A DNA stretch of 18,667 bases from Clostridiales bacterium (GCA_031269465.1 JAISZB010000069.1:1-18667); one strand, 5' to 3'. Shown: positions 2,444-18,478, counted from the stretch's first letter. The notes: generated by a model not told the origin, from the letters alone. Numbers and translations are program-made.

Positions 2444-5008
2444 TCAAGCTTGCTTGAAGACTGCGGCAATCTTATCCAAAAGGTCTTCTCCTCCTGAGAT
2501 GTTGACGTTGCCAATCTTCTCGCAAACTGTCTTGAGGAGCTTTTCACGGTACTCCATTTCTTTTAGGCGCATCAATGTCTGGTTTTCTTCCATCATTTTG
2601 GCCGTATTCAGCAAGCTTCTGGTAGAGGCCACTTCCTCGCGCCGCGTAATGACATTGGACTGGGCTTGCTTTTCGGCTATAAGCACCGAGTTCATCATTT
2701 GGCGGATCTCTCCGGGAAGGATTATATCCTTTACCCCTGCGTCATAAAATTGAACAAAAAGCTCTGGCTCCTTTTCCTTCAGTCGGAGGAAGATAAAGTC
2801 GCTTATCTGGTCTTTGTTCTCCAACAATTCGTCCAGGCGAGCGCGGCCTACGCTGTCCCGGAGCGCCAACTGCACAATGCTGTGTATTTGCTCCTCGAAA
2901 TTGAGAATCTCTGTGCCAATCTTTACATAGTCGGTGATCTTGAAACGGCATACGCAGTTTATCCGCAACTGAACTTTATCCAGCGTAAGGATCTCCTGTC
3001 CTTGAATCTGCAACTGGGTAAGGCGCGTATCTACCAGCTCCACTCTCACGGATACGCCGTTGTTCCAGAAATAGTACGTTCCCTCATCGAGCAGTCGGAT
3101 GAATCTGTCGTTGTAATACAGACGGCCTTTTTGGTAATCCTTTACTTCTTCAAGTTTATACAGGTTATCAGACATCAGCTCGAAAATGTAATATGGTATG
3201 TCATCGGATATCAGTGGTTCGCGTATATCTATCATTTTGAAATCATGCTGATCTTTCAGCTTCCAAAATGCGTAGCGTCCGCTGGGCAACGCATCTGCGA
3301 AGCGGTTATTGCGGTAATGGAGAGCCACGGTTTCATCTGGCACTTCAAGCGGCTGCATTTCATCAGCCAACGCTTGGTCGGCCAAGTAAACGTCAAGGTT
3401 GTACTCCTTTGGGGAAAAAACGGAGTCCGTATTTACCTTGCTGCATGTGAAGCCGTTGCCAAGGAAGGCGTGCCTTCCCGGCTCAAGCATGTTTTGAAAT
3501 ACGCCGTTGTTGAAAAGAAAGCCGCGCTCATTGTCGTTAACTGAGAAAACTTTCAGCTCTTTTGACAATACAGGGTCTTTAAGAAATACATCTAGGCTAC
3601 GGCCTCCAGTGTCAAACGCCTTGCCGGCGGGCATCGAAGAGACGCTTCTGCTTCTGCCGAAGAAGATATGCCTGCCGGGCCTGAGCGTCCCGACAAACAA
3701 TCCTTCTTTATATAATGCTCCGAGGCAGTCATCCTCCACCTCAAAAACCTGCACCTCAGACGAGAAAACCTCATCTCTTAGGTATATATCCGTTTCGCTT
3801 GATTCAGGTATAAATTCTTTGTCTATGTCAACGTTCTTGCAAGTCCATGATTTGCCGAGATACGCGTGTTTTCCTGGTTTAAGGTACTTTTCAAACAAGC
3901 GGTTTTTATACAACACTCCGCGTTCGCCTTCAGAGATGACGTATATATGCAGAATTTCAGCCAGCTTAGGATCTTTAAGATAAATATCTGAACTGTACTT
4001 CTTAAGTTCAGTCTCCATTTCATATTGCTCTACACTAAAGGTTCGCCCGAGAAAGGCATGTCTGCCAGGAGGCAGCATTTTGACGAATAGTCCCGATTTA
4101 AACAAAAAGCCTCGCTGAGTTTCGTAGATTTCAAACACTTGAAGTTCTTCAGCAAGCTCGGGATAGCTTAAAAATACATCCAAAGGCGCGGATTTTGGAG
4201 AGAATTCAGCTTCAATCCGGGCAATTTCATAAGTAAAACCCTTGCCCAGATACGCATACTTGCCGGATTTGAATGATCTGATAAATTTGCCGTTTTTAAA
4301 GACTAGGGCGAACTCACCGTCCTTAACCTCGATTGGCAGCAAGAGTTTCGCTATGGCCGGATCGTGAGTGAAAATATCGATATCGTGACCTGCCGGCGCA
4401 AAGCGGTCATCCATGTTGACCCATACAATGCTGAAGCATTTGCCCAAATAAGCATGCTTGCCCGGAGAAAGCATTTTTTCAAATCGACCGTGCTTAAACA
4501 GGAGGCCTCTCTGGCCTTCCGGAATGTCAAATACTTGAAGTTCGGCAGTGAGATCGGGATCCTTGAGGAATACATCTACAGAGCCGTTTTTCGGCGCAAA
4601 GACACTGTCAGCTTCAACAATTTCGATTGTCCGACTTTTGGTCGCAAGCGCAACATCTCCAGGCTTAAGCAGTCTGGTGAATCGGCCGTTTATAAATAAC
4701 AGCCCTCGCTGATTTTCAAATATGCGGGTGAACATCGAACCCCAACCTTTCCTTAAGGATTTCCACAACGGCGCATTCAACGCATTTGTTTTATGCGATT
4801 TACCTAACGGCGTTGCCGGCTGCCCATGCGGCCTGACAGGCTGCGACGCTTCCAACTCATGCTGTTTGTCAATAGTTGAAGGCTGATCGCCGCTTTTCTG
4901 AGTCTGGGCTGCTCTTAAACATTTAAGAAGGCGAAGCAGCAACTTTCGCTGGAGTTCAGATTCGCAATCGGCCACCGGATCCCATCCTTTCAAAAATAAA
5001 TTTTCCAT
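2444..5008 (-). CDS. SPFH/band-7 (stomatin/prohibitin/flotillin/HflK-C) domain protein with a 9-unit N-terminal tandem repeat array; 854 aa as called
   Basis: Single 854-codon ORF.
- C-terminal third (aa ~625-800) is a canonical SPFH core: GRLYYNDRFIRLLDEGTYYFWNNGVSVRVELVDTRLTQLQIQGQEILTLDKVQLRINCVCRFKITD…IVQLALRDSVGRARLDELLENKDQI…DAGVKDIILPGEIRQMMNSVLIAEKQAQSNV. Compare stomatin QEILTKDSVTISVDGVVYYRV…LAQTTLRNVLGTKNL…WGIKVERVEIKDVKLP…AAEAEA. An Ala/Glu-rich coiled-coil-like tail follows.
- aa ~97-660 consist of nine tandem units with exact 65-67-aa periodicity, starting at aa 97, 163, 229, 296, 361, 426, 493, 558 and 624. Each has the form [D(I/V)(F/Y)L(K/R)DP.L..EL.VF.(V/I)]…(Q/E)RG.LFK.G.F…L.PG(K/R)HA(F/Y)LG..F, which is the pattern of the first β-hairpin of an SPFH domain. 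The last unit is the true start of the SPFH core.
- No hydrophobic N-terminal anchor.
- No strong SD at the 5008 ATG. An alternative start at 4732 (MFTRIF…) has AAGGAAAGG 10 nt upstream. Confidence 0.85.
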   Translation of the reverse strand: MENLFLKGWDPVADCESELQRKLLLRLLKCLRAAQTQKSGDQPSTIDKQHELEASQPVRPHGQPATPLGKSHKTNALNAPLWKSLRKGWGSMFTRIFENQRGLLFINGRFTRLLKPGDVALATKSRTIEIVEADSVFAPKNGSVDVFLKDPDLTAELQVFDIPEGQRGLLFKHGRFEKMLSPGKHAYLGKCFSIVWVNMDDRFAPAGHDIDIFTHDPAIAKLLLPIEVKDGEFALVFKNGKFIRSFKSGKYAYLGKGFTYEIARIEAEFSPKSAPLDVFLSYPELAEELQVFEIYETQRGFLFKSGLFVKMLPPGRHAFLGRTFSVEQYEMETELKKYSSDIYLKDPKLAEILHIYVISEGERGVLYKNRLFEKYLKPGKHAYLGKSWTCKNVDIDKEFIPESSETDIYLRDEVFSSEVQVFEVEDDCLGALYKEGLFVGTLRPGRHIFFGRSRSVSSMPAGKAFDTGGRSLDVFLKDPVLSKELKVFSVNDNERGFLFNNGVFQNMLEPGRHAFLGNGFTCSKVNTDSVFSPKEYNLDVYLADQALADEMQPLEVPDETVALHYRNNRFADALPSGRYAFWKLKDQHDFKMIDIREPLISDDIPYYIFELMSDNLYKLEEVKDYQKGRLYYNDRFIRLLDEGTYYFWNNGVSVRVELVDTRLTQLQIQGQEILTLDKVQLRINCVCRFKITDYVKIGTEILNFEEQIHSIVQLALRDSVGRARLDELLENKDQISDFIFLRLKEKEPELFVQFYDAGVKDIILPGEIRQMMNSVLIAEKQAQSNVITRREEVASTRSLLNTAKMMEENQTLMRLKEMEYREKLLKTVCEKIGNVNISGGEDLLDKIAAVFKQA
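3031..4726 (-). repeat. In-frame tandem array of ~198-bp (66-aa) units inside the SPFH gene: 8 full copies plus a 9th merged with the SPFH core
   Basis: Protein-level periodicity listed above. The units are divergent at DNA level, so the array is ancient rather than a recent slippage expansion. Confidence 0.7.
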
Positions 5009-5989: not shown

Positions 5990-6870
5990 GCCGACGCGCT
6001 CGGCGAAGTTGAAGTCGAGCCTGATTTTAAAGGGATCTCATCGGATCTTCGCGAAGAGGCGGCGGAAGCGCCGGATCCGCGCCAGTCCGCCAAAGCGGCC
6101 CGCCGGCTCCCGGACATGCCCGTCGCGGCACTGCTCGCCATTTTGCGAGGCGCGAACCCTTGGGGCGGCCTCGCGAGATTCGCCGGCGCCAACGCTGCTG
6201 GGATCCGCTTCTCCGCGACAGGCGACACGTTTCAAAACACATTTTCAAGAATCGACGACAACATTATTCTCAGGCATCTGGGCGGCTTCTTAAGCCGCCT
6301 GTCTCAGGCGGCCTCGCAAGCAAGGCGGAGGCCCTGCCAGCTGCCTGCGACACCTTCCCCGAAGAAATAATGCGCATTTCGCGCGACCGAAAGGAAAATG
6401 TCGGATCAGGGAAGGGCGGCGCAGCGAAAGCCAACATATCGGGCGCGTACGACTCCAAAACCGGTGCTGTTCCCGTCAGGGGCTAATCAACGCGAAAACC
6501 GATGAAACCGCGGCGATTCCGGCGCTGGTCGACCATGCCGGCGAAGCCGCGCGAGGATCCATGTCCGCATGGGACGCGCCGGATGCGACGGACAAGAACG
6601 CTAAGAAGGCCATTGAAGCCGGGACGAGCTGCGTTTAGGCGCTCAAGGGCGGCGCAGCGCGCATTTTCAAGCGAAACTGCGATATATTATGGCTGTCGGG
6701 ATAGAGGCCGGAACGGGGTGCGTCGAGATATTGAAAGACGGCATCCCGGCCATCCGCTGGGTTGCGAAAAGAGGCTGAGCGGACTATTTTGCGGCAGCCG
6801 GCATTTCGCGCTCCTGCAACTCGGATAAATAGGCCGAGTCGGACTCCATCCGCAGTTGGAGATGCAGTCC
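5990..6870 (+). mobile_element. ISAs1-family (H-repeat-like) transposase remnant, multiply frameshifted, GC-rich; boundaries approximate
   Basis: Matches the ISAs1 N-terminal pattern (…DPR…H.L.DIL…GA..W.DI..FG…FENGIPSHDT..RVFSRIDP…) in the frame of ORF 5975-6370:
LREEAAEAPDPRQSAKAARRLPDMPVAALLAILRGANPWGGLARFAGANAAGIRFSATGDTFQNTFSRIDDNII.
Matches the ISAs1 DDE-region motifs (SNEITAIP.LL and TIDAMGCQ…ALKGNQ) in other frames, interrupted by stops:
…DSKTGAVPVRG/LINAKTDETAAIPALVDHAG… (6489-6540) and …AWDAPDATDKNAKKAIEAGTSCV*ALKGGAA (to ~6660). Confidence 0.5.
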
Positions 6871-7090
6871 ATCAAAGCGGCGGAACTGCATATTCATTCA
6901 GGCAGATTTTGTCCTCTTCATACGTCATGGAGGAAATTTCAATGTCCACAAGGCTCCACAGGGGAGAATACCGATATTTAAAAAATACCTTCCATTTCTT
7001 AAAACCCATAAATAACGGGGCATTGCCAATTGCTTTATCGATATTAAGAATCAGGAGAAAACCATAATAGCCATCATAAGGCGGCGGGAA

Positions 7091-8300
7091 ATGAACGCAG
7101 AGGAATTCACAGGGAAATTCAACCTTGAAATTTCCAAGTTCGGCTATAAATCCAAGACTCAAAATGCGTACTTGAAACGCTGCAAAGAAATAATGTCTTT
7201 TATGCAACTGGAAGACATTCAGCTTTTCACGGAGGAATCCCTGGAAACATGCCTTGACTGTTTGCGGATTCGGTGCTATTCAGGCGAAATAAAGCCTGCC
7301 GCCCGCAAAATCCCGCGGAGGGCCGCCAGGCTCATGCATGAGCTCAAAGAAAACGGATCGCTGGAGCGGCGCGCCATGGCAGATGGGAAAGCTTTCAAGC
7401 CGACAAGCATGAAGGGCGCATATGAGGAGTTCATCGCATCCGCCTCAAAGCGGCCAGCGCCATCCACTATGCAGGACTTCAGGATCTGCGGCCGCAAGTT
7501 CATCGCGTTTTTGGAAGGCGCAAACCGCGCGGATTTCGAGAATTCCTGCGCCAAGGCCTTGAAGGATTGCATTTTCTTCATGGCTTCATCAAGCAAGCTT
7601 AACGGCTGTCAAAGATTCATTTATGTCTTGAGGGCTTTCTGCGGCTTCTTGTCCCCGAAGGGATTGATCAAGCCTGAAATGGCCGGGATAATGCAGAAGC
7701 CCGCGGGAAGCCGGAGAGACATCCTGCCATACCTGAAGCGGGGGCATGTCGAGGGCCTTCTTGGGCCGAGCCGACGGCATGCAAAACTGCAAGGGAAACT
7801 ATGCCATGACAGCCTTGCCGGCCAACACGGGCTTGAGGTTCGGCGTGATCAGCGAGCTGAAGCTGACAGGCATAGATTGGCGCGGCAACGCCATAAACGC
7901 ATTTCAAGGCAAAAATTCCCAAGCCAGTCAAGCCCCTCTTGACGCCGCGGCCGGCTATCGCTTCAATGAGCGTCCGCAAGGCAAAAACGCGGAATGCATG
8001 TTCATAAGCTCCCGGGCTCCGCACACAAAGCTGGCCGGAGGGAAGCTCATGAAAAAGCGCTTGGAGAAGGCGGGCCTTTGCGAGGGCGAAAGCGGATTCC
8101 ACGCCCTGGGGCGCGGAATAGCCGCGGATCTTCTTGAAGCCGGCGCGGATCATGAGATAGTTTCCCAGATTGACGGGCATATGCGGCTTGAGTCCCTGGA
8201 TCCCTACTTTGCTGTTGACATTGAAGGCTTAAGGAAAAGGCGCCGCGCCAGCTTCGAGGATCTCGGCGCCCCTGCGTCCAGCTGGGGCGCCAAACCTTGA
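7091..8300 (+). pseudogene. Tyrosine recombinase 1 (RitA-like, ~400 aa if repaired) with one frameshift near 7765
   Basis: - N-terminal ~220 aa are in frame A (7091-7942).
- The catalytic domain is in frame B (7746-8300): LLG-RADGMQNCKGNYAMTALPANTGLRFGVISELKLTGIDWRGNAINAFQGKNSQ…FISSRAPHTKLAGGKLMKKRLEKAGLCEGESGFHALGRGIAADLLEAGADHEIVSQIDGHMRLESLDPYF. This carries the box I region, HxLR, a second His and the catalytic Tyr.
- The frames join at LLG, where a GGGCC run (7763-7767) has one base too many. Confidence 0.65.
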
Positions 8301-8332
8301 AAAAGGATGCGTTTGGAAGCGAATTCGACTAG

Positions 8333-9061
8333 GACTTCGCGGACATGATTGAATGCAAAGCCGCCCTCGGCTTTAAGGAGAGCTCATGCTACGGAAGCCC
8401 GCTCAATTTTGATCGCTTCCGCCTCAAGAGCTTTCCCGGCGAATGCAGCATATCAAGCGAAATGCTGCTTGAATGGCTTGAGCCAAGGCCGAGGGAGGGC
8501 GTCAACGGCGCTGCCGCCAGATCATATTCCGCGGCGGGCTTGGCGAACTGCATCAACGCCATGGGGGGGACGTCGCATGTCCTGCATGCGGGCTATCTGG
8601 GGAAACGCGCCCGCTGCAATCCCTACATGTATTCCGACATGGAGTTGAAGCTGTTCATCTTTGCCACAGACTTGCACGCGCATGCGAAAAACCCTTTGGA
8701 CACCACTGTCCGCGACATCTTCAGGCTGCAGCGCTCCTGCGGGTTGCGGCCTTTCGAGCCGCGCCTGCTGAAGCGCGGCGATGTTGATTTCGAAGGCGAA
8801 ACCATTTATATAGCCGACTCGAGGATGCACAATGCGGGGTTTCATGAAAAGCCTGGGATTTTATTTATGTGCGTGTTACGAAAAAAATACTAACGTTCTC
8901 ATTTCTTGAGGCGCAGTTTCGTCACAAAATGCGTGCACAAGTATCTTTATGAAGGCCCTGTCGATTTCAAGTCCATCATTGTGCATTTCCAAAGATGCCC
9001 GGGCCATGCGAAGATCAGCGAGACACTGTACTACATGCGCCTGGTGCGGAAAGGATCCTGA
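8333..9061 (+). pseudogene. Tyrosine recombinase 2 (RitB-like, short) with an in-frame TAA at 8891-8893
   Basis: Frame-2 ORF 8345-8893 reads …YSDMELKLFIFATD…NPLDTTVRDIFRLQRSCGLRPFEPRLLKRGDVDFEGETIYIADSRMHNAGF…, the box I-like region. In the same frame after the TAA it continues SHFLRRSFVTKCVHKYLYEGPVDFKSIIVHFQRCPGHAKISETLYYMRLVRKGS* (8897-9061), which carries HxxR…GH…Y. So the break is a nonsense codon, not an indel. Confidence 0.55.
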
Positions 9062-9157
9062 TGAGCAAAGGGTTCGACCTGAATTGCACGAAGAGGCGGG
9101 ATCAGTCAAAAAGCCAAAGAGCGAATGCCTTGAGCCGCTGAGGGGCTGCATTTCCAT

Positions 9158-9720
9158 ATGTCTCCCCCGGCGGCGAAAGAAAAGCTCCGCCGCTGCCGAA
9201 AACTGCAAATGCGCGCGGAATGTTTTTTTGACTGTCTCGGAGATGTGGAGAAAATCAGCGTCACGGACATAAGCTTTGATAAAATGGCATTTGGCGTCAT
9301 GAACGGATTCGCGCAATGGATGCTTGAGGCGGGGAAATGCAAGAACAGCTCCGCGAATCAAAGGCTATCGCGCATATGGGCGTTCTGCAGGCGCGCATCG
9401 TTGCGAAAGCCTGCCTGCGGCATTTGCTGCAATGAGGTGAAGAGCGCCGGCTCCTTGGATGCCGGCAAGGGCAGGCAAGTGAAATTCTTTTCCGAGGACG
9501 CTCTCCAAGCCATTTTGGAGCAGCCGGACGCATCCGCCAAAATCGGCTGGGGGATTTCTCCCTCATGCTTCTGATGCATGACGCAGGCGCCAGGGCCGGC
9601 GAAATTCTGAAGTTGAGGCTGCCGGGCATTGAATCCCATTCAAGGGAGCTGATAGTGGGCGTCGAAGGAAAAGGGGGCAAGCTCAGGCAGATCCCCCTTA
9701 TGGATGCAACGTGCGCGTAA
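9158..9720 (+). pseudogene. Tyrosine recombinase 3 (RitC-like): N-terminal core-binding domain plus box I only; frameshift at ~9550 and 3'-truncated at ~9720
   Basis: - 9158-9574 has the SAM-like core-binding pattern: …MAFGVMNGFAQWMLEAGKCKNSSANQRLSRIWAFCRRAS…FFSEDALQAILEQPDASAKIGW.
- The frame then shifts inside a G5 run (9549-9553). Restoring one G gives GDFSLMLLMHDAGARAGEILKLRLPGIESHSRELIVGVEGKGGKLRQIPLMDATCA*.
- No HxxR/Y region follows. The sequence becomes AT-rich promoter DNA at 9721. Confidence 0.6.
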
Positions 9721-10023: not shown

Positions 10024-10404
10024 ATGATGGAATTTGTACCTTTAAGAAGTCTACAGCGGGGATTACCAGAGGTCTGGCAGACTCTGCGCAAAGAAAATGG
10101 CCGAATTATTTTGACCAATAAAGGTCAACCAGCATATTTGCTTGTTGATTTAGCAGATAAAGACATCATCAATTTAATTAATTTTTTTGACGACTATCAA
10201 GCAAAAGCGGCGAGTGCGACTTGCGATCCAAAAGTTGAGACAAGTCAGAAACTAACGCCTCAAGAAGAAAAAGCCGCCCAAAATTTTTTAGCGGCAATGC
10301 AAACATTTAGAGAGACTAACTTTACACCAGAGGTTCTAAAGGCATTTACTGAACTTGAGAGCGGTAAATACCGACCTAAGTTATTTCGGGAGCTTGACTT
10401 ATGA
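10024..10404 (+). CDS. Type II antitoxin, Phd/YefM family (126 aa)
   Basis: N-terminus MMEFVPLRSLQRGLPEVWQTLRKENGRIILTNKGQPAYLLVDLADKDIINLI fits the Phd/YefM fold pattern (…ARQNL…PIlITrnG.p.avLvsl..Y..L). Its stop overlaps the toxin start (ATGA at 10401-10404). Confidence 0.8.
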   Translation: MMEFVPLRSLQRGLPEVWQTLRKENGRIILTNKGQPAYLLVDLADKDIINLINFFDDYQAKAASATCDPKVETSQKLTPQEEKAAQNFLAAMQTFRETNFTPEVLKAFTELESGKYRPKLFRELDL

Positions 10405-10814
10405 TATATGCACTTGATACCAATATTGTTTCATACATCATCAGGGGTGAAGGAGAAGCTGACAAGCGATTTTCACAAGAGCTTCAGGCCGGCAATTCAT
10501 TTGCCATTCCACCAATGGCGGTCTACGAATTAAAACGTTGGCTAATGGATAATCCATCGAAAGAAATGAGATTTCTGGCTCGAGAATTCGATAGTTTATA
10601 CAAAAGTGTACGCCACAAATCAGAAATGTCCGCTTCTGCATGGGAAGAAGCGGCGAAAATTTATATTCATTTAAAGCAAAAAGGTGAATTGATTGAAGAC
10701 ATGCATATTTTAATTGCCTCTTATTGTTTAGTGAATGATTATGTACTGGCAACTAATAATGCTAGACATTTTGATCGGATAGATGGAATAAAATATGTTA
10801 ATTGGATGAATTAG
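10401..10814 (+). CDS. vapC: Type II toxin VapC (PIN-domain ribonuclease), 137 aa
   Basis: MIYALDTNIVSYIIRGEGEADKRF… carries the PIN acidic residues: D in LDTN, E in YELK, D in IEDMHILIAS, and N/D in ATNNARHFDRI. The 4-bp ATGA overlap with the antitoxin indicates translational coupling. An 11-bp perfect inverted repeat (10818-10828 / 10848-10858) follows the stop. Confidence 0.85.
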   Translation: MIYALDTNIVSYIIRGEGEADKRFSQELQAGNSFAIPPMAVYELKRWLMDNPSKEMRFLAREFDSLYKSVRHKSEMSASAWEEAAKIYIHLKQKGELIEDMHILIASYCLVNDYVLATNNARHFDRIDGIKYVNWMN

Positions 10815-11709: not shown

Positions 11710-12045
11710 ATCAAACCCTAATCTCCCATGTCTGATAAATAAATTCACTGGCTAAAGTCATCATTGCAGGGAAACCGCCTTTATCAAAGCATTCATAGAA
11801 AACGGCACTTGCCTTGACAAAATCCAATAAGTCTAGCAAATACAAATTAATCTGAACCATATCGCTAAACGTTGCGCCTACTGGCACTAAGGTATTCTCA
11901 TGCTTATAAAAGCTGCTCGCATTTGATGTTCAATATCTTTCATGTCAAATCCACCTGCATGGTGTGCAAGAAAGATGAATCGCCCTCGACTACACAACCC
12001 GGACAGCAATATTCGACTAGCTCTCTGCGCGTCATCGATATTCAT
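11710..12045 (-). pseudogene. RidA/YjgF/TdcF-family protein, frameshifted (about 110 aa if repaired)
   Basis: - First frame: MNIDDAQRASRILLSGLCSRGRFIFLAHHAGGFDMKDIEHQMRAAFISMRIP*.
- Adjacent frame: (L)VPVGATFSDMVQINLYLLDLLDFVKASAVFYECFDKGGFPAMMTLASEFIYQTWEIRV*.
- This matches the RidA C-terminal pattern …aGa.l.dVvk.tvyL.d..dFaavN.vY..yF….PAR.av.V..LP.ga.vEIe.iA.
- The frames join if CC (minus strand, ~11891) is read as CCC.
- AAGGAAG RBS. The start codon forms an ATGA overlap with the CPBP stop. Confidence 0.55.
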
Positions 12046-12904
12046 CTTCCTTTGATTTTGTATTTCCCATTAATTAACAAAAGAGCTAAAATTATAACCG
12101 CCGCATATCCGATTACTTCGGGGAAAGAGGCTTCAATTCCGAACGCGCCGCCTGTCAAAAGCACCGATTTTGTTTGCAAGGTATAGGTGAAAATATTGGC
12201 ATTGCGGGGATTAACGCCAATAGTCAATATCTGTCCTATAATGATTAAGTTCCAAATGCCGTGAACGACCGCGCCCGGAAATATAGAACCGCTCTGATAG
12301 CAAATCAGCGAAAACGTTATCGATACACTTGTCCCGGCAACGAACAGCAGCAGAATGTCTAGCAAGTTGGGATTTTGCATATTTGTAAGATGCATCAGTA
12401 CGAAGATAATCGATGGCACGAGAACCGCCGCGATTTTACCGAAATGAACCTCAAGAATCCTCATAACAAAGCCCCTAAAAAGCAGTTCTTCGCCAAATCC
12501 GGCGGCAAGGCAAGCGCTGAATATTGCGCAGGCAAAAATATACTCAATCGTTGCGCTGTCCAAATGCCGATTTGCGAAAACTCCGTCCGCGAAAAATATA
12601 AAGTATAGCGAAACGAGCGCGGGCAGAATCACGGCGACAGGAATCCAAACCGCCCAAGCCCTCGGAGAAGCGGGCTTTTTCACTCGGCAATCTGATAAAA
12701 CTATTTTCAGCGCTTTTCGGCAATACAGGCTGAGCAGCACAAACAACAGCGCGGCACGGACGAGTGCATTCAAAACTTGCGAAATCACAGGGGACGGAAT
12801 GTGAAACGCAAGCGTCGCTATCCCTTGGATAAAACAAATCCGACAATGCCGACAAGCGCGTGAAGCATTGCCTTTGGCGCGGTTAGAATAAATTCTATTT
12901 TCAT
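12042..12904 (-). CDS. CPBP-family intramembrane metalloprotease (CAAX protease / Abi domain), with an apparent frameshift at ~12825
   Basis: The 248-aa ORF (12042-12788) has multiple TM helices and the CPBP motif 1, EELLFRG (…AAGFGEELLFRGFVMRIL…), with later conserved His residues (…LMHLTN…, …VVHGIWN…). Upstream, in frame -1, is MKIEFILTAPKAMLHALVGIVGFVLSKG* (start 12904). Reading one extra A in the AA run at ~12825 joins it as …VLSKGIATLAFHIPSPVISQVLNALV…, a plausible first TM helix. Confidence 0.8.
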
Positions 12905-14680: not shown

Positions 14681-14815
14681 GATTTCTTTGGATTTACGCC
14701 GAAGGAACTTGATTGATTATCCATTGAGTGGTGCGAAATGCCGATATCGCCATTTCGCACTCGCTGTATAGTCAAGCTCCCAAAAAGGCAATTTTCTATG
14801 AAAATCAGCATGTCT
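14681..14815. repeat. Composite nested-hairpin repeat, copy B
   Basis: - Left arm CTTGATTGATTATCC (14709-14722), cf. GGAGCTTGATTATCC in copy C.
- 30-bp near-perfect palindrome GTGCGAAATGCCGAT|ATCGCCATTTCGCAC (14731-14760), cf. the hairpin of copy A.
- Then …GTCAAGCTCCCAAAAAGGCAATTTTCTATGAAAATCAGCAT…, homologous to the A/C right segment TCAAGCTCCAAAATAGGTGATTTGACTGCAAATCGGCAT. Confidence 0.55.
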
Positions 14816-15801
14816 GCCAGAGGCGGCAAAATGGTAGTCTTGCAATGCGGCGGCATAGAGTGCCTCATGCTATACCGGGCGACAATAGAGGAGGCGGAAG
14901 CCTAGAGTAACGGAATTTTGTCGGGGTGCGACTGTCTCCTGAACATAAGATTAAGGTGGAGATTTGCTCTATCTCAAATGCTTTCAAGATAATATCAGTG
15001 GAGAGTTTGAGAAGATGGCATAAGCTTGCAAAGGAAGGAATATGATAGACCGTGTATGCCTAAAGAACTGATGATGGGACTTAATCGAGAGTCTAAGTTC
15101 GGAGAGCATCCATCTCAAAGGATATTATTCTAAATATAGTCGCAATCTAAAGCCAAGCCCAAAAATAAGGACTTGCATCAGTATAACTGCTCGCAGGGTG
15201 GAAAAGTGCATCAGCAGCTTATAGCTGGTTGCATTAGTTGAGTGATGGCTTCGGAAAATGTGGACATTGGGAAGTGGAGCTTCTCTAAGGGCAATAGCAA
15301 GGGAATGAGGAAAGTGTAGAAGCGCTAAAAGTTCATTTGCAAAAACAATTCCCAAGAGATTATTTTCTATGGTTCCCCAAGAAGCGCTTCTTGGCGGAGG
15401 GTTTCTTCAGGGGCCAAGGCGGATAAGCTTTGGACGGCATAGGTTGAATTAGTGCCTGAGGCCGTCCTCGCTGCAGCAATTGTTTTACTTCTAAGCCGCA
15501 GCAAACGGGATGGATATTATTCACGCAGATTACTCAGCTAAATATAGAAAACAGCAGTATCGGCTGCCGCCAGAACGAAATCAATCATGGCTGATTTATC
15601 AAAATAAGCGAACGATTCTATGCCGCAATTTTTTGCGCTTGCAGAAGAGTTGAAAACATGAATATACGGCTAGACTTTCGCAACTCTGCCCGCTGTACTC
15701 TGCAGTTCGCTGCATGTTGATTCCTTATGGCAGATTTTTCGCTTTTTGCATAGAGGCTTTCATCAGTTTTTTCGCCGTTGCCAGGGGTCATGGAGGTAAA
15801 T

Positions 15802-17568
15802 ATGGAAGAAAATTTCGAAGATTTGCTTGACCGTATGCTTACAGCTCTGCATGCCGCTGAAAAGAGACATCGGGCGGTTCGAGACAGCGCATCCGACAGC
15901 AGTAATTGGAGCGCCTACGACAATGAAGTTAAATTTATTTCTGACATAATCAAATGGCGAAGAGACTTAGAGCCGCTTCGTATGCATATTGTCAGTTCCG
16001 GGGCGGTAATCGTCGAGGATGTTCCTCAAGCTGCTGGTTCATCTGACAAAGAGCCCGTTCCAGTCAGCGTTGAGGATGATCCCGCGGCCCATCGCTTCGA
16101 CGATGAGCGCATAGGGCGTTATGTAAGGCGGAAAATGAAAGATTTGAGCAATGCGGGGTTTGCGTTCCCGGCTGAAGGCATTGCGAATCTGCAAAATGCC
16201 CAGTGGTGCTTTCAGGTTCTAAATATAGCGCACCCTTTCTTTTTGCAAACAACACAGAAAGCGACTCATTATTGGAAAAGTGATATTTTTATATTTAACG
16301 GCAGGTCATTCCGCCTCTGTATGGAATGGTACAATGATCTGTATAGGGGCCGCAGCCAGCGCGAATGCTTCGACAACTGGTATAATAGCCTATCCATTGA
16401 TACAAGTTCCGAGTCTTTTAAAGACGGCGAAGAAATCAGAATCGGCGAATATATTCGCAGCAAACTCCGAGAGTTGAGCAACAGCGGGTTTGCATTTACT
16501 GAAGATCAGATAAAGCAGCTAGGTGATGTAGAATGGAGCAGTGTGACATTTGCCAAGAAATCTTTTTTGCCAATTGCGAGAATTGCAAAGAGAAATCAAG
16601 ATATTAGCCTGCAAATAAGAGACGATAGAGGTAAAGTCAGATATTGGAATGAGTTGTTTTCTTTCGGAAAAACTGACTTGCTGTTTACTAACAGATGGAA
16701 ACTGCGGAATAGGGAGAGCTTCGATAGGTGGTACGAAAAACTCTCGCAAGTTGAAAAAACAATTGCGGCTGATACCCTTATATTTAGAAAGACTGTGAAC
16801 TGGTCTATGCTGAATTACGGATTTTCAGTGCCAGCATCAAATTGGGGGCTTTTATTTGACGCGATAGGGGGAGCTGTTGATAGGGCCGCCGGTCGGAAAG
16901 TATCTGTGGATGTAGCAGGCGTAAGTTGTACAGCGCTTGTTTCTTGTTCAGTGAGCGGAAATAAAAAGACGGTTCAAATACGCTATCCTCAGAACAGCGG
17001 CATACTATCTTATCTTAGAGAGAGCTTTGCTGATATTTACGCCTATTGCATTCAAGAACGCAACCTTCACGGCAAGGACAGGCGCATTGACATCCCCTCC
17101 GATATGGAAGGAAGCATAAGCATTTACGCGGCAAAAGAGCAGAAAGCACTGAGAATTGACTGCGGATCTCATAAGATAGGAAATGGCGTTGAGGCGCAGG
17201 CTGAAACGGTAATTATTCATGCTAAATCACAATTTAATGGGGATGGCATCGTAGAGGTTTCTAATTCTTTTGTTCCGATTTTGAAATTCCCAGACAGAAA
17301 TTTTATTATTTGCGCCAAGCTTAATGCGGATGCTCAATCGGTTTCGTTTAGAGCTGAGGCGGAAGGCAGCCCGCATGCCGAAAAATCTCTCACGGTCGCC
17401 CATCTAAAAGAAGTCGCTCTGCTTGAAAGGAGCAAACGCATTCATCGAGTCGCTGTTCCAGAGAGCGTGAATGTCAGAAAGAAAATGATGTTTATGGCGT
17501 GGATTGACCCTCCGGGGATTAACATTCAGGAAGAAACGCCAATATCCCAACCTTTGGAAGAGCCCTGA
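15802..17568 (+). CDS. Hypothetical protein, 589 aa (596 aa from the upstream ATG at 15778), with two ~100-aa internal repeats; no recognisable domain
   Basis: The long ORF is the only open frame on either strand here. GGAGG lies 5 nt upstream of the ATG at 15802. Repeat 1 (aa ~106-205) is DDERIGRYVRRKMKDLSNAGFAFPAEGIANLQNAQW…FNGRSFRLCMEWYNDLYRGRSQRECFDNWYNSLS. Repeat 2 (aa ~216-323) is GEEIRIGEYIRSKLRELSNSGFAFTEDQIKQLGDVEWS…FTNRWKLRNRESFDRWYEKLS. The shared motifs are IG.Y(V/I)R.K(M/L)(K/R)(D/E)LSN.GFAF and (E/R)(C/S)FD.WY..LS. The C-terminal ~270 aa are non-repetitive. Confidence 0.75.
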   Translation: MEENFEDLLDRMLTALHAAEKRHRAVRDSASDSSNWSAYDNEVKFISDIIKWRRDLEPLRMHIVSSGAVIVEDVPQAAGSSDKEPVPVSVEDDPAAHRFDDERIGRYVRRKMKDLSNAGFAFPAEGIANLQNAQWCFQVLNIAHPFFLQTTQKATHYWKSDIFIFNGRSFRLCMEWYNDLYRGRSQRECFDNWYNSLSIDTSSESFKDGEEIRIGEYIRSKLRELSNSGFAFTEDQIKQLGDVEWSSVTFAKKSFLPIARIAKRNQDISLQIRDDRGKVRYWNELFSFGKTDLLFTNRWKLRNRESFDRWYEKLSQVEKTIAADTLIFRKTVNWSMLNYGFSVPASNWGLLFDAIGGAVDRAAGRKVSVDVAGVSCTALVSCSVSGNKKTVQIRYPQNSGILSYLRESFADIYAYCIQERNLHGKDRRIDIPSDMEGSISIYAAKEQKALRIDCGSHKIGNGVEAQAETVIIHAKSQFNGDGIVEVSNSFVPILKFPDRNFIICAKLNADAQSVSFRAEAEGSPHAEKSLTVAHLKEVALLERSKRIHRVAVPESVNVRKKMMFMAWIDPPGINIQEETPISQPLEEP

Positions 17569-17725
17569 AATTCCCCATGTTTGGCGAAGAATATGCAGGC
17601 GCAAGTTGAATGAGATGCATGTCAGGGTTTGGAAGCCAATGGCATTGCATAGTCGGCATACTATGGCGGCTATGGATAAGGATGGCGAAGCAAGTGTTGC
17701 TCCGCGCATTAATTTTAGCTATGTA

Positions 17726-17822
17726 GATTTGCATATGAAAGTTGCGGATTATGGAGCTTGATTATCCAACGGATAATCAAGCTCCATAATCGGTGCATTT
17801 GACCGTAAATCGGCATATATGC
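17726..17822. repeat. Composite nested-hairpin repeat, copy C (base form without the inserted hairpin)
   Basis: GATTTGCATATGAAAGTTGCGGATTATGGAGC followed by the perfect 15-bp palindrome GGAGCTTGATTATCC-aac-GGATAATCAAGCTCC (17753-17785), then ATAATCGGTGCATTTGACCGTAAATCGGCATATATGC. Same orientation as copy A, ~16.2 kb away. Confidence 0.6.
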
Positions 17823-18124
17823 AGTCCGAAATACAGTTCAACGCAAACGCTTGCCAAATGGCTTTTGGATAGAAAGCGCACTCTATTTATTGCGTCGTTG
17901 CCGGCAGTTGCCAGAAAAACGGAGGTATTAGCCTGAAGAGCTGCAAGTTGAAACTTTGGAGGTTCAGCGATGATAGACGCGACAAGAAGATTGGGTGAGC
18001 CTGCCCTTCATATGGCAAGGCTATCCGAACCTTCACTTCAAAGCTCAGAGGGATTCTCGCATTGCATCCGAAAAAAACAGCTGGAGGATTGCCTCGCTGG
18101 GCAGTTGCTCCTGGTTGCCTGCTG

Positions 18125-18478
18125 CTATACTGCGGCAATCTTCACTTGCGAGGAAGGCAATTCGCTGCATGACGCGCTTACAATCATTTCAGGGCTTTCT
18201 GATGCTTGCGCTACTGCCATAATTCTACCCCGCCAAGTTTTTCCTTTTGGCTGCGCGTAATTCTGGCAACCTGCGGGATCTCCTGATCCCATGGCTAAAA
18301 ATACTCCGCCTTCCACAGTAAAAGACAGCTCCAGATCTTCGTTCGGACAAATGCATTCAGATTCATCACAGTTGTTATGCGGCGGATACCAGGACAATTT
18401 AACGCCCATTACATAATGCGTTAACTGGTGTTTTGTGGCGTACACAATGCAGCTTTGCTTAATTGGAATAAGTTGCAA
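18125..18478 (-). CDS. Hypothetical protein; start uncertain (TTG at 18478 or ATG at 18409)
   Basis: The minus-strand ORF …MGVKLSWYPPHNNCDESECICPNEDLELSFTVEGGVFLAMGSGDPAGCQNYAQPKGKTWRGRIMAVAQASESPEMIV… looks more protein-like than the overlapping plus-strand ORF 17970-18260. No clear SD. An AT-rich putative regulatory region with the palindrome AAATTGAtTCAATTT (18576-18590) lies upstream. Confidence 0.25.
   Translation of the reverse strand: MQLIPIKQSCIVYATKHQLTHYVMGVKLSWYPPHNNCDESECICPNEDLELSFTVEGGVFLAMGSGDPAGCQNYAQPKGKTWRGRIMAVAQASESPEMIVSASCSELPSSQVKIAAV

Follow-up and report, generated by a model that had tools for sequence, protein, structure and literature searches.

The DISARM defence systems comprise DrmA, DrmB and DrmC together with either DrmMI/DrmD or DrmMII/DrmE, and SeqA is a reader of hemimethylated GATC. 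In ARMADA type II, a YprA-family helicase occurs together with a GajB-like UvrD helicase, and the preprint describing YprA-family systems notes only "many uncharacterized DISARM-like classes" beyond this (10.1101/2025.09.15.676423). An Hsp70-like protein with nucleotide-binding and substrate-binding domains and coiled-coils is part of the restriction-type CoCoNuT III and early NxD McrB systems (PMC11090510). Here we analyzed the open reading frame (ORF) at positions 15802–17568 (+) of contig JAISZB010000069.1 (GCA_031269465.1); the window is this contig in full, 18,667 bp from a metagenome-assembled "Clostridiales bacterium". It is probable (about 0.7) that the ORF is the open 5′ 1.77 kb of a decayed gene encoding X, the DNA-recognition/sensor subunit of a DISARM-related operon, and that the window copy is a non-functional relic. 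Family X is a name coined in this analysis for proteins that begin with a helical hairpin (N), end with a domain designated E and head operons of the order X-Y-Hsp70-UvrD-DrmA-DrmB.

The ORF is uninterrupted and consists of 588 codons and a stop (589 counting the stop). A Shine-Dalgarno-like GGAGG (15792–15796, +), read directly from the sequence, lies 5 nt upstream of the ATG at 15802, and no substantial ORF was found in the approximately 900 bp further upstream, as an earlier annotation of this DNA (hereafter, the sequence-only reading) had reported for both the long clean frame with a good ribosome-binding site and the empty stretch before it. The product is 100% identical to the NCBI entry 'MAG: hypothetical protein LBU32_06020 [Clostridiales bacterium]'. 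The whole protein had no significant match in Pfam, NCBIfam, PADLOC, PHROGs or PDB sequences. To this extent the view of the ORF as an orphan that could not be placed was correct, and so was its description as a large protein of an uncharacterized family with an internal duplication; the orphan status itself did not stand. A search of 5.8 billion proteins yielded eight homologues of 42–55% identity; the 707-aa protein P0002 is 51% identical to the window protein across aa 4–585, and 505 cluster representatives share modules with the latter. With an identity of only ~51% to the closest relative, synonymous sites in the ORF are saturated. No family common to the relatives emerged when 9, 10 and 59 of them were scanned with Pfam, and none of the members was detected in a scan of viral contigs. 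Family X is rare and patchy, being present in 2 of 185,579 species genomes.

Members of family X are modular: a constant N-terminus (aa 1–70) is followed by optional cassettes R1, R2, C and D and by the constant C-terminal domain E of about 110 aa (consensus KITLLGKEY..W..KVCE....FSY....LSNGLWVETN....LEKCGF). The cassettes differ even among relatives that are 50–80% identical. In the window protein, module N (15811–16011, +; aa 4–70; located by module mapping) is a two-helix hairpin with the pattern AEKRHR...ASD..W...KWRR and retains the invariant residues common to all eight close homologues. An AlphaFold2 model of P0002, built on a 150-sequence alignment, places the N helices at residues 4–31 and 35–65 with a predicted local distance difference test (pLDDT) score of 94–96, and the full-length model consists of defined domains, most of them with a pLDDT of 86–98, joined by disordered linkers. 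Protein X is a beads-on-a-string protein of DNA-binding-type modules.

Domain E closes all eight close homologues and is missing from the window ORF. Its remnants were found by tblastn and frame translation immediately downstream, at 17535–17973, dispersed over three frames. The first piece (17535–17594, +; frame position mod 3 = 0) reads ...KFPMFGEEY, equivalent to KITLLGKEY of the family; the second (17600–17744, +; mod 3 = 2) reads NEMHVRVWKPMALHSRHTMAAMDKD...INFSY; and the third (17836–17967, +, with the stop extending to 17973; mod 3 = 1, the frame of the ORF itself) reads KRLPNGFWIES...PEKRRY, followed by a stop and PEELQVETLEVQR, where family members have KRLSNGLWVETN...LEKCGFSPDELQVETMEV. 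Within the third piece, an in-frame TAG is located at 17929–17931, upstream of the ancestral stop at 17971–17973. Non-conservative changes affect the most conserved motifs of E: KVCE is replaced by RVWK in the second piece and LEKCGF by PEKRRY and the stop in the third. In total, the domain has accumulated at least three frameshifts, one nonsense codon and an insertion of a repeat of about 80 nt, and the gene is a degraded member of the family, lacking the in-frame E that is otherwise constant. Since E lies downstream in broken frames and is present in eight of eight close homologues, the stop at 17566 is evidently the product of a frameshift, and the annotated protein is a truncation.

The inserted repeat (about 17745–17825, identified by a repeat search and inspection of the sequences) is palindromic and looks like a miniature inverted-repeat transposable element or a repetitive extragenic palindromic element. 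It is one of three copies in the window (~1481–1600, ~14730–14790 and ~17745–17825): the two longer copies form an inverted pair with 55-nt arms that are 80% complementary, and the remaining one is a shorter hairpin copy. The segment at 17771–17795, previously taken for a repeat marking a boundary (copy C), marks none, as it sits inside the decayed 3′ end of gene X.

The genomic surroundings of intact relatives were analyzed on the contigs of the homologues, at two loci from the 185,579 species genomes and at 13 metagenome loci. The arrangement X-Y-Hsp70(-UvrD-DrmA-DrmB) was present in L001–L008, L013, L014–L024 and L027–L029, and the same order was kept in every locus with enough downstream sequence, with the sole exception of the relative P0031. 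This strict order covers more than 15 loci from Clostridia and one spirochaete; the genes are co-directional, and their stop and start codons often overlap. X, the first gene, is followed by gene Y for a coiled-coil protein of about 380 aa that belongs to no Pfam family, and by a gene encoding an Hsp70-like ATPase of about 490 aa that has the nucleotide-binding domain only. The fourth gene encodes a UvrD/GajB-like helicase of about 760 aa; its N-terminal 185 aa had no match among PDB sequences, which leaves the operon without an identified nuclease. DrmA, of about 1,060 aa, was recognized by PADLOC (E = 1e-220) and by the NCBIfam model DISARM_DrmAS (E = 1.8e-271), the latter with 904 bits against a cutoff of 950, and DrmB (DUF1998/MZB; about 600 aa) by NCBIfam (E = 9e-140; 467 bits, cutoff 240). 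Upstream of X, there is usually a small helix-turn-helix gene with a gene encoding SLFN_AlbA_2, HATPase_c_4 and winged helix-turn-helix domains, or else a KilA-N gene.

On three long contigs, DrmB is the last gene of the operon, and neither a methyltransferase nor a phospholipase D (PLD) nuclease gene was found there. These are L027, a 304-kb contig with convergent ilv/aro genes after the operon; L028 from Clostridium sp.; and L029 from Treponema primitia, in which X is a minimal protein of 224 aa made of helical N and E. At L030 (1072–14922), the operon is itself decayed, with X, Y and Hsp70 each split into two ORFs, and DrmB is followed by three fragments of an MmeI/Eco57I-like N6-adenine methyltransferase (DUF7149, DUF7814, MmeI_Mtase, Eco57I); these fragments hint that a methyltransferase was once part of some versions of the system. 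The distant X protein P0031 (N-R-R-E, 494 aa; L010 10001–12357, L011 6755–9111) has no Hsp70 or DrmAB beside it. Its gene is followed by one for a 285-aa protein in which the N-terminal ~87 aa of Y are fused to a second E domain, and the pair is located within a serine-recombinase/AAA_25 element inserted beside rpsR-ssb-rpsF. This pair may represent the module in a stand-alone form of two genes. Because P0031 keeps the N-terminus of Y without Hsp70 and DrmAB, the X-Y pairing is the most constant feature of these loci.

Other genes near the intact operons include one for an 835-aa protein with PLD and DEAD-box helicase parts (L013 6502–9009), identified by eye from the sequence, a MazG-like gene and an AAA_15/AAA_21 ATPase gene (L013; L027 1–922), as well as toxin-antitoxin genes. 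Such neighbours are consistent with defence islands. The independent metagenome contigs L001, L005 and L014 end within ~100–150 bp downstream of DrmB, as would be expected if the operon were immediately followed by a repeat or a strain-variable junction.

None of the partner genes accompanies X in the window. Searches by tblastn with all partner proteins (Y, Hsp70, UvrD, DrmA and DrmB) gave nothing at E < 0.1 in the window, and profile searches of its flanks for remnants of Y, Hsp70 and the upstream SLFN_AlbA_2/HATPase_c_4 regulator were negative (E > 2 with the Y profile). Consequently, neither the succession of X by Y nor the DrmA and DrmB genes of DISARM were found in the window. A 96-aa ORF (17970–18260, +) overlaps the ancestral X stop by ATGA, as is typical of X/Y junctions, at the place where Y begins in intact operons. 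The first ~20 residues of its product (MIDATRRLGEPALHMARLSE) loosely resemble the N-termini of Y proteins (MDAIVRLNELLGRASKISD), profile searches being not significant; this ORF may be all that remains of Y ahead of a deletion breakpoint. The decayed gene X is abutted by an isolated C-terminal fragment of a glycoside hydrolase family 2 glycosidase (Glyco_hydro2_C5; 18125–18478, −). The collection of homologues, fold search and gene-neighbourhood comparison recommended in the sequence-only reading were the checks that proved informative. That reading had missed both the truncation by frameshift and the lack of partner genes in the window; its guess of a defence-like neighbourhood and a sensor role agrees with the family's occurrence in DrmAB operons, and sensor remains the best reading of X.

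Regarding domain E, a profile of 28 sequences retrieved SeqA of V. cholerae with E = 0.0046 among 177,635 PDB sequences, and four further SeqA entries were within the next five matches. The hhalign probability for E and SeqA was 92%, and the signatures RxRVYF and WVITN(T)N of SeqA were aligned with R..FSY and LWVETN of E, respectively. Domain E is homologous to the C-terminal DNA-binding domain of SeqA (PDB 3fmt, 3sk7, 1lrr, 1j3e), sharing its fold and signature, with an identity of about 13%. The minimal form of X (helical N, linker and SeqA-like C-terminus, ~225–235 aa) shares its overall layout with SeqA. However, the N-terminal domain of X appears to be a two-helix hairpin that is longer than that of SeqA and different from it; X also carries additional DNA-binding cassettes, and its gene, in Clostridia and spirochaetes, is part of a helicase operon and does not neighbour dam or pgm. 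In the window copy, the SeqA-like domain is destroyed.

The duplicated module of ~100 aa, described in the sequence-only reading by its N-terminal and FDxWY C-terminal motifs, was recovered with both motifs: R1 (16105–16401, +; aa 102–200) and R2 (16423–16755, +; aa 208–318) are 31% identical (BLASTP, E = 2e-13). R2 is of the widespread R type (RYW...F.FG...SQWY...FD.WY). Since R1 of the window protein is closer to R1 of the homologue P0008 (59% identity) than to its own R2 (34%), the duplication is ancient and not local. Among the retrieved proteins, 94 instances of R were counted. Outside family X, the module occurs on a C-5 cytosine DNA methylase (P0136), GIY-YIG nucleases (P0110, P0156) and a NUMOD1 protein (P0148), the company that would be expected of a DNA-targeting module. 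R is a new module: its profile had no match among PDB sequences, leaving R with no counterpart there, and comparison of R with E by hhalign found them unrelated.

Module C (16783–17169, +; aa 328–456) is a pseudobarrel similar to B3 and EcoRII N-terminal domains, and module D (17203–17535, +; aa 468–578; ...MMFMAWIDP) is a mostly-beta domain. The model of C matches B3-type beta-barrels, with a seven-stranded open barrel and two helices, and does not match a nuclease fold; the match was placed on C rather than on D by topology and not by a printed alignment. C is therefore, at the level of the structural model, a B3/EcoRII-N-type DNA-recognition barrel. The closest to it are the B3 pseudobarrels of the EcoRII N-domain, the BfiI C-domain, R.NgoAVII, UbaLAI, the LlaJI.R1 N-domain and plant B3 factors; C has neither sequence-level similarity to these nor an attached catalytic domain. 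When aa 96–588 of the window protein (without N) were modelled, R1, R2 and D had pLDDT values above 90, and the confidence for C was moderate (63–77). Neither the C nor the D profile matched any of the PDB sequences, and D has no PDB counterpart.

The reading of the window copy as a relic is supported by the loss of E and all partners, by unique changes in the protein and by the lack of a promoter-like site. At positions invariant in six homologues, 24 changes are unique to the window protein, as compared with 1–9 in the others, which points to relaxed constraint; no sigma-70-like promoter was detected in 500 bp upstream of the ORF, which is weak evidence. Several facts weigh against it or against the role assigned to the family. 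No disabling lesions were found in the 1767-nt ORF, as opposed to about five in the next ~360 coding nt, and equal neutral decay would predict ~24 lesions in the ORF. Because the ORF is free of lesions, its front part may have stayed under selection after the loss of E; alternatively, the contrast may reflect a local hotspot at the 3′ end, linked to the insertion of the repeat. R1, R2 and D of the window copy are still predicted to fold with high confidence. DNA binding by R and D is putative, and the target of E may be methylated, hemimethylated or plain-sequence DNA. X is not strictly tied to DISARM-like operons, since P0031 is linked to neither Hsp70 nor DrmAB, and no defence activity of this operon type was reported in the literature searched. 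It is accordingly conceivable, albeit unlikely, that the truncated N-R1-R2-C-D protein is still functional as a stand-alone DNA-binding protein, whether it serves as a regulator or decoy or works with an operon located elsewhere in the genome; a bolder version is that, once the system had died, selection may have preserved it in the role of a stand-alone DNA-binding factor. An intact frame with a good ribosome-binding site, next to a 3′ part and a contig mostly riddled with lesions, would agree with this, as would the confident folding of three modules and the variability of cassettes between close relatives, by which partial architectures can be viable. However, every other member with N and a complete C-terminus ends in E, the confidence of the module C model is below that of P0002, and the substitutions at otherwise invariant positions, the missing promoter-like site and the lack of any partner gene on the contig do not favour a working gene.

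It is very improbable that the frameshifts are sequencing or assembly errors and that the true gene encodes a full-length 700-aa N-R1-R2-C-D-E protein. The lesions are indeed concentrated in the last 1.1 kb of a contig from a metagenome-assembled genome, much of which looks frameshifted (e.g., three integrase fragments at 7091–9574) and could reflect an indel-prone assembly; yet the damage goes beyond indels, including the TAG at 17929, the altered KVCE and LEKCGF motifs and an inserted repeat of ~80 nt with further copies elsewhere on the contig, and the expected start of Y is occupied by no Y-like sequence but by the opposite-strand glycosidase fragment. We assign a similarly low likelihood to the proposal that family X does not belong to defence and is a SeqA-like factor for the chromosome or for replication, or else a protein of mobile elements, that merely hitch-hikes beside DrmAB. 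The SeqA-like layout of minimal X and the relative located in a serine-recombinase element without DrmAB speak for such a role, but the strict same-strand order with Y-Hsp70-UvrD-DrmA-DrmB in more than 15 loci, the rare and patchy distribution, the variable cassettes and the location in defence islands with the PLD-helicase, AAA_15/21 ATPases and toxin-antitoxin genes are features that fit defence genes rather than housekeeping ones. Hardly credible is the model of the sequence-only reading, a sensor-effector fusion with a PD-(D/E)xK-like nuclease in the C-terminal half. A loose D-x12-E-Q-K pattern does exist in the window protein at aa ~434–449, within module C; its proposed catalytic residues are, however, not conserved in module-C homologues, and the fold is a B3-type barrel. 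When seven sequences of module C are aligned, the position of the D is occupied by E/D/N/S/N/N in the others and that of E-Q-K by TAK/TPN/TPN/IPG/DNT/DNT. No search gave a significant nuclease-like match, and no effector domain was found. A decayed X, left from a DISARM-related operon, thus remains our preferred explanation of the ORF.

The contig contains few evidently intact genes: the Band_7 protein, the PIN toxin-antitoxin pair, the Rce1-like protease and the X ORF together account for ~31% of it, which is very low for a bacterium, and the contig as a whole is gene debris. The 854-aa protein encoded at 2444–5008 (−) has an SPFH/Band_7 domain (E = 1e-26) after ~8–9 tandem repeats of ~66 aa, whose unit RGxLFKxGxFxxxLxPGxHAxLG...DVFLxDP had no Pfam match. 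Three consecutive tyrosine-recombinase genes at 7091–9574 (+) are all fragmented, with Phage_integrase and Phage_int_SAM_5 domains on separate ORFs, and look like a dead recombinase-trio element; this block is rich in G+C (55–61% at 6000–9500 as compared with 44–48% elsewhere). An antitoxin-like gene overlapping a gene for a PIN (VapC-type) toxin was found at 10024–10814 (+), in the stretch with the lowest G+C content (38–40%), and an intact Rce1-like/CPBP membrane protease was encoded at 12042–12788 (−). Whole-window megablast against phage and plasmid collections gave no match, and nothing was found in the window with Rfam at the gathering threshold.

The operon of intact relatives is a new DISARM-like variant. 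It resembles DISARM in having clear DrmA and DrmB, encoded by two separate genes in defence islands, and differs from it in that the three intact operons on long contigs lack DrmC (the PLD nuclease) and the DrmMI/DrmMII methyltransferase, having X, the coiled-coil protein, the Hsp70-like ATPase and the UvrD/GajB-like helicase instead; no DISARM gene at all is present in the window. The pairing of a YprA-family with a GajB-like UvrD helicase is shared with ARMADA II, and the recruitment of an Hsp70-like protein and coiled-coils with CoCoNuT III and early NxD McrB systems; but in ARMADA the YprA helicase is fused and is accompanied by a BrxHII-like helicase and a PglX-like methyltransferase, with no Hsp70, and CoCoNuTs differ from the X operon in being McrBC-based. 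Neither a SeqA-like protein nor the gene order of the X operon is mentioned in the two publications on these systems (10.1101/2025.09.15.676423; PMC11090510), and no description of the operon or of protein X was found in the literature searched, which included the CoCoNuT paper, the YprA/ARMADA preprint and a modularity-network preprint.

In the proposed mechanism, X would act as a DNA-recognition/sensor subunit reading a sequence or methylation feature of DNA. Acting with the coiled-coil protein Y and the Hsp70-like ATPase, the N hairpin would link what has been read to DrmAB and the UvrD-like helicase, so that X would recruit or license these helicases on foreign DNA. Recognition by X would take the place of the self-marking by a methyltransferase that canonical DISARM uses and the intact operons lack, and the shuffling of cassettes between close relatives would retune the specificity; cassette shuffling among relatives with 50–80% identity fits selection for changing specificity. 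In its fullest form, we advance this proposal only tentatively, at somewhat less than even odds: intact relatives would represent an undescribed DISARM-derived system free of methyltransferase and nuclease, in which a SeqA-like reader with shuffled cassettes tells self from foreign by methylation state or sequence, Y and Hsp70 couple this signal to two helicases, and R is a new DNA-binding fold that methylases and homing-type nucleases also have.

The practical message is that the window ORF is to be annotated as a probable pseudogene fragment. For the family, our analysis provides a first assignment for R, D and the SeqA-like E, three domain families that Pfam does not contain, and extends the range of SeqA-type domains beyond Gammaproteobacteria to a defence setting. 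That a variant free of methyltransferase should in every case encode a modular reader with SeqA-like and B3 domains suggests a dedicated recognition subunit for self/foreign discrimination of the DISARM type.

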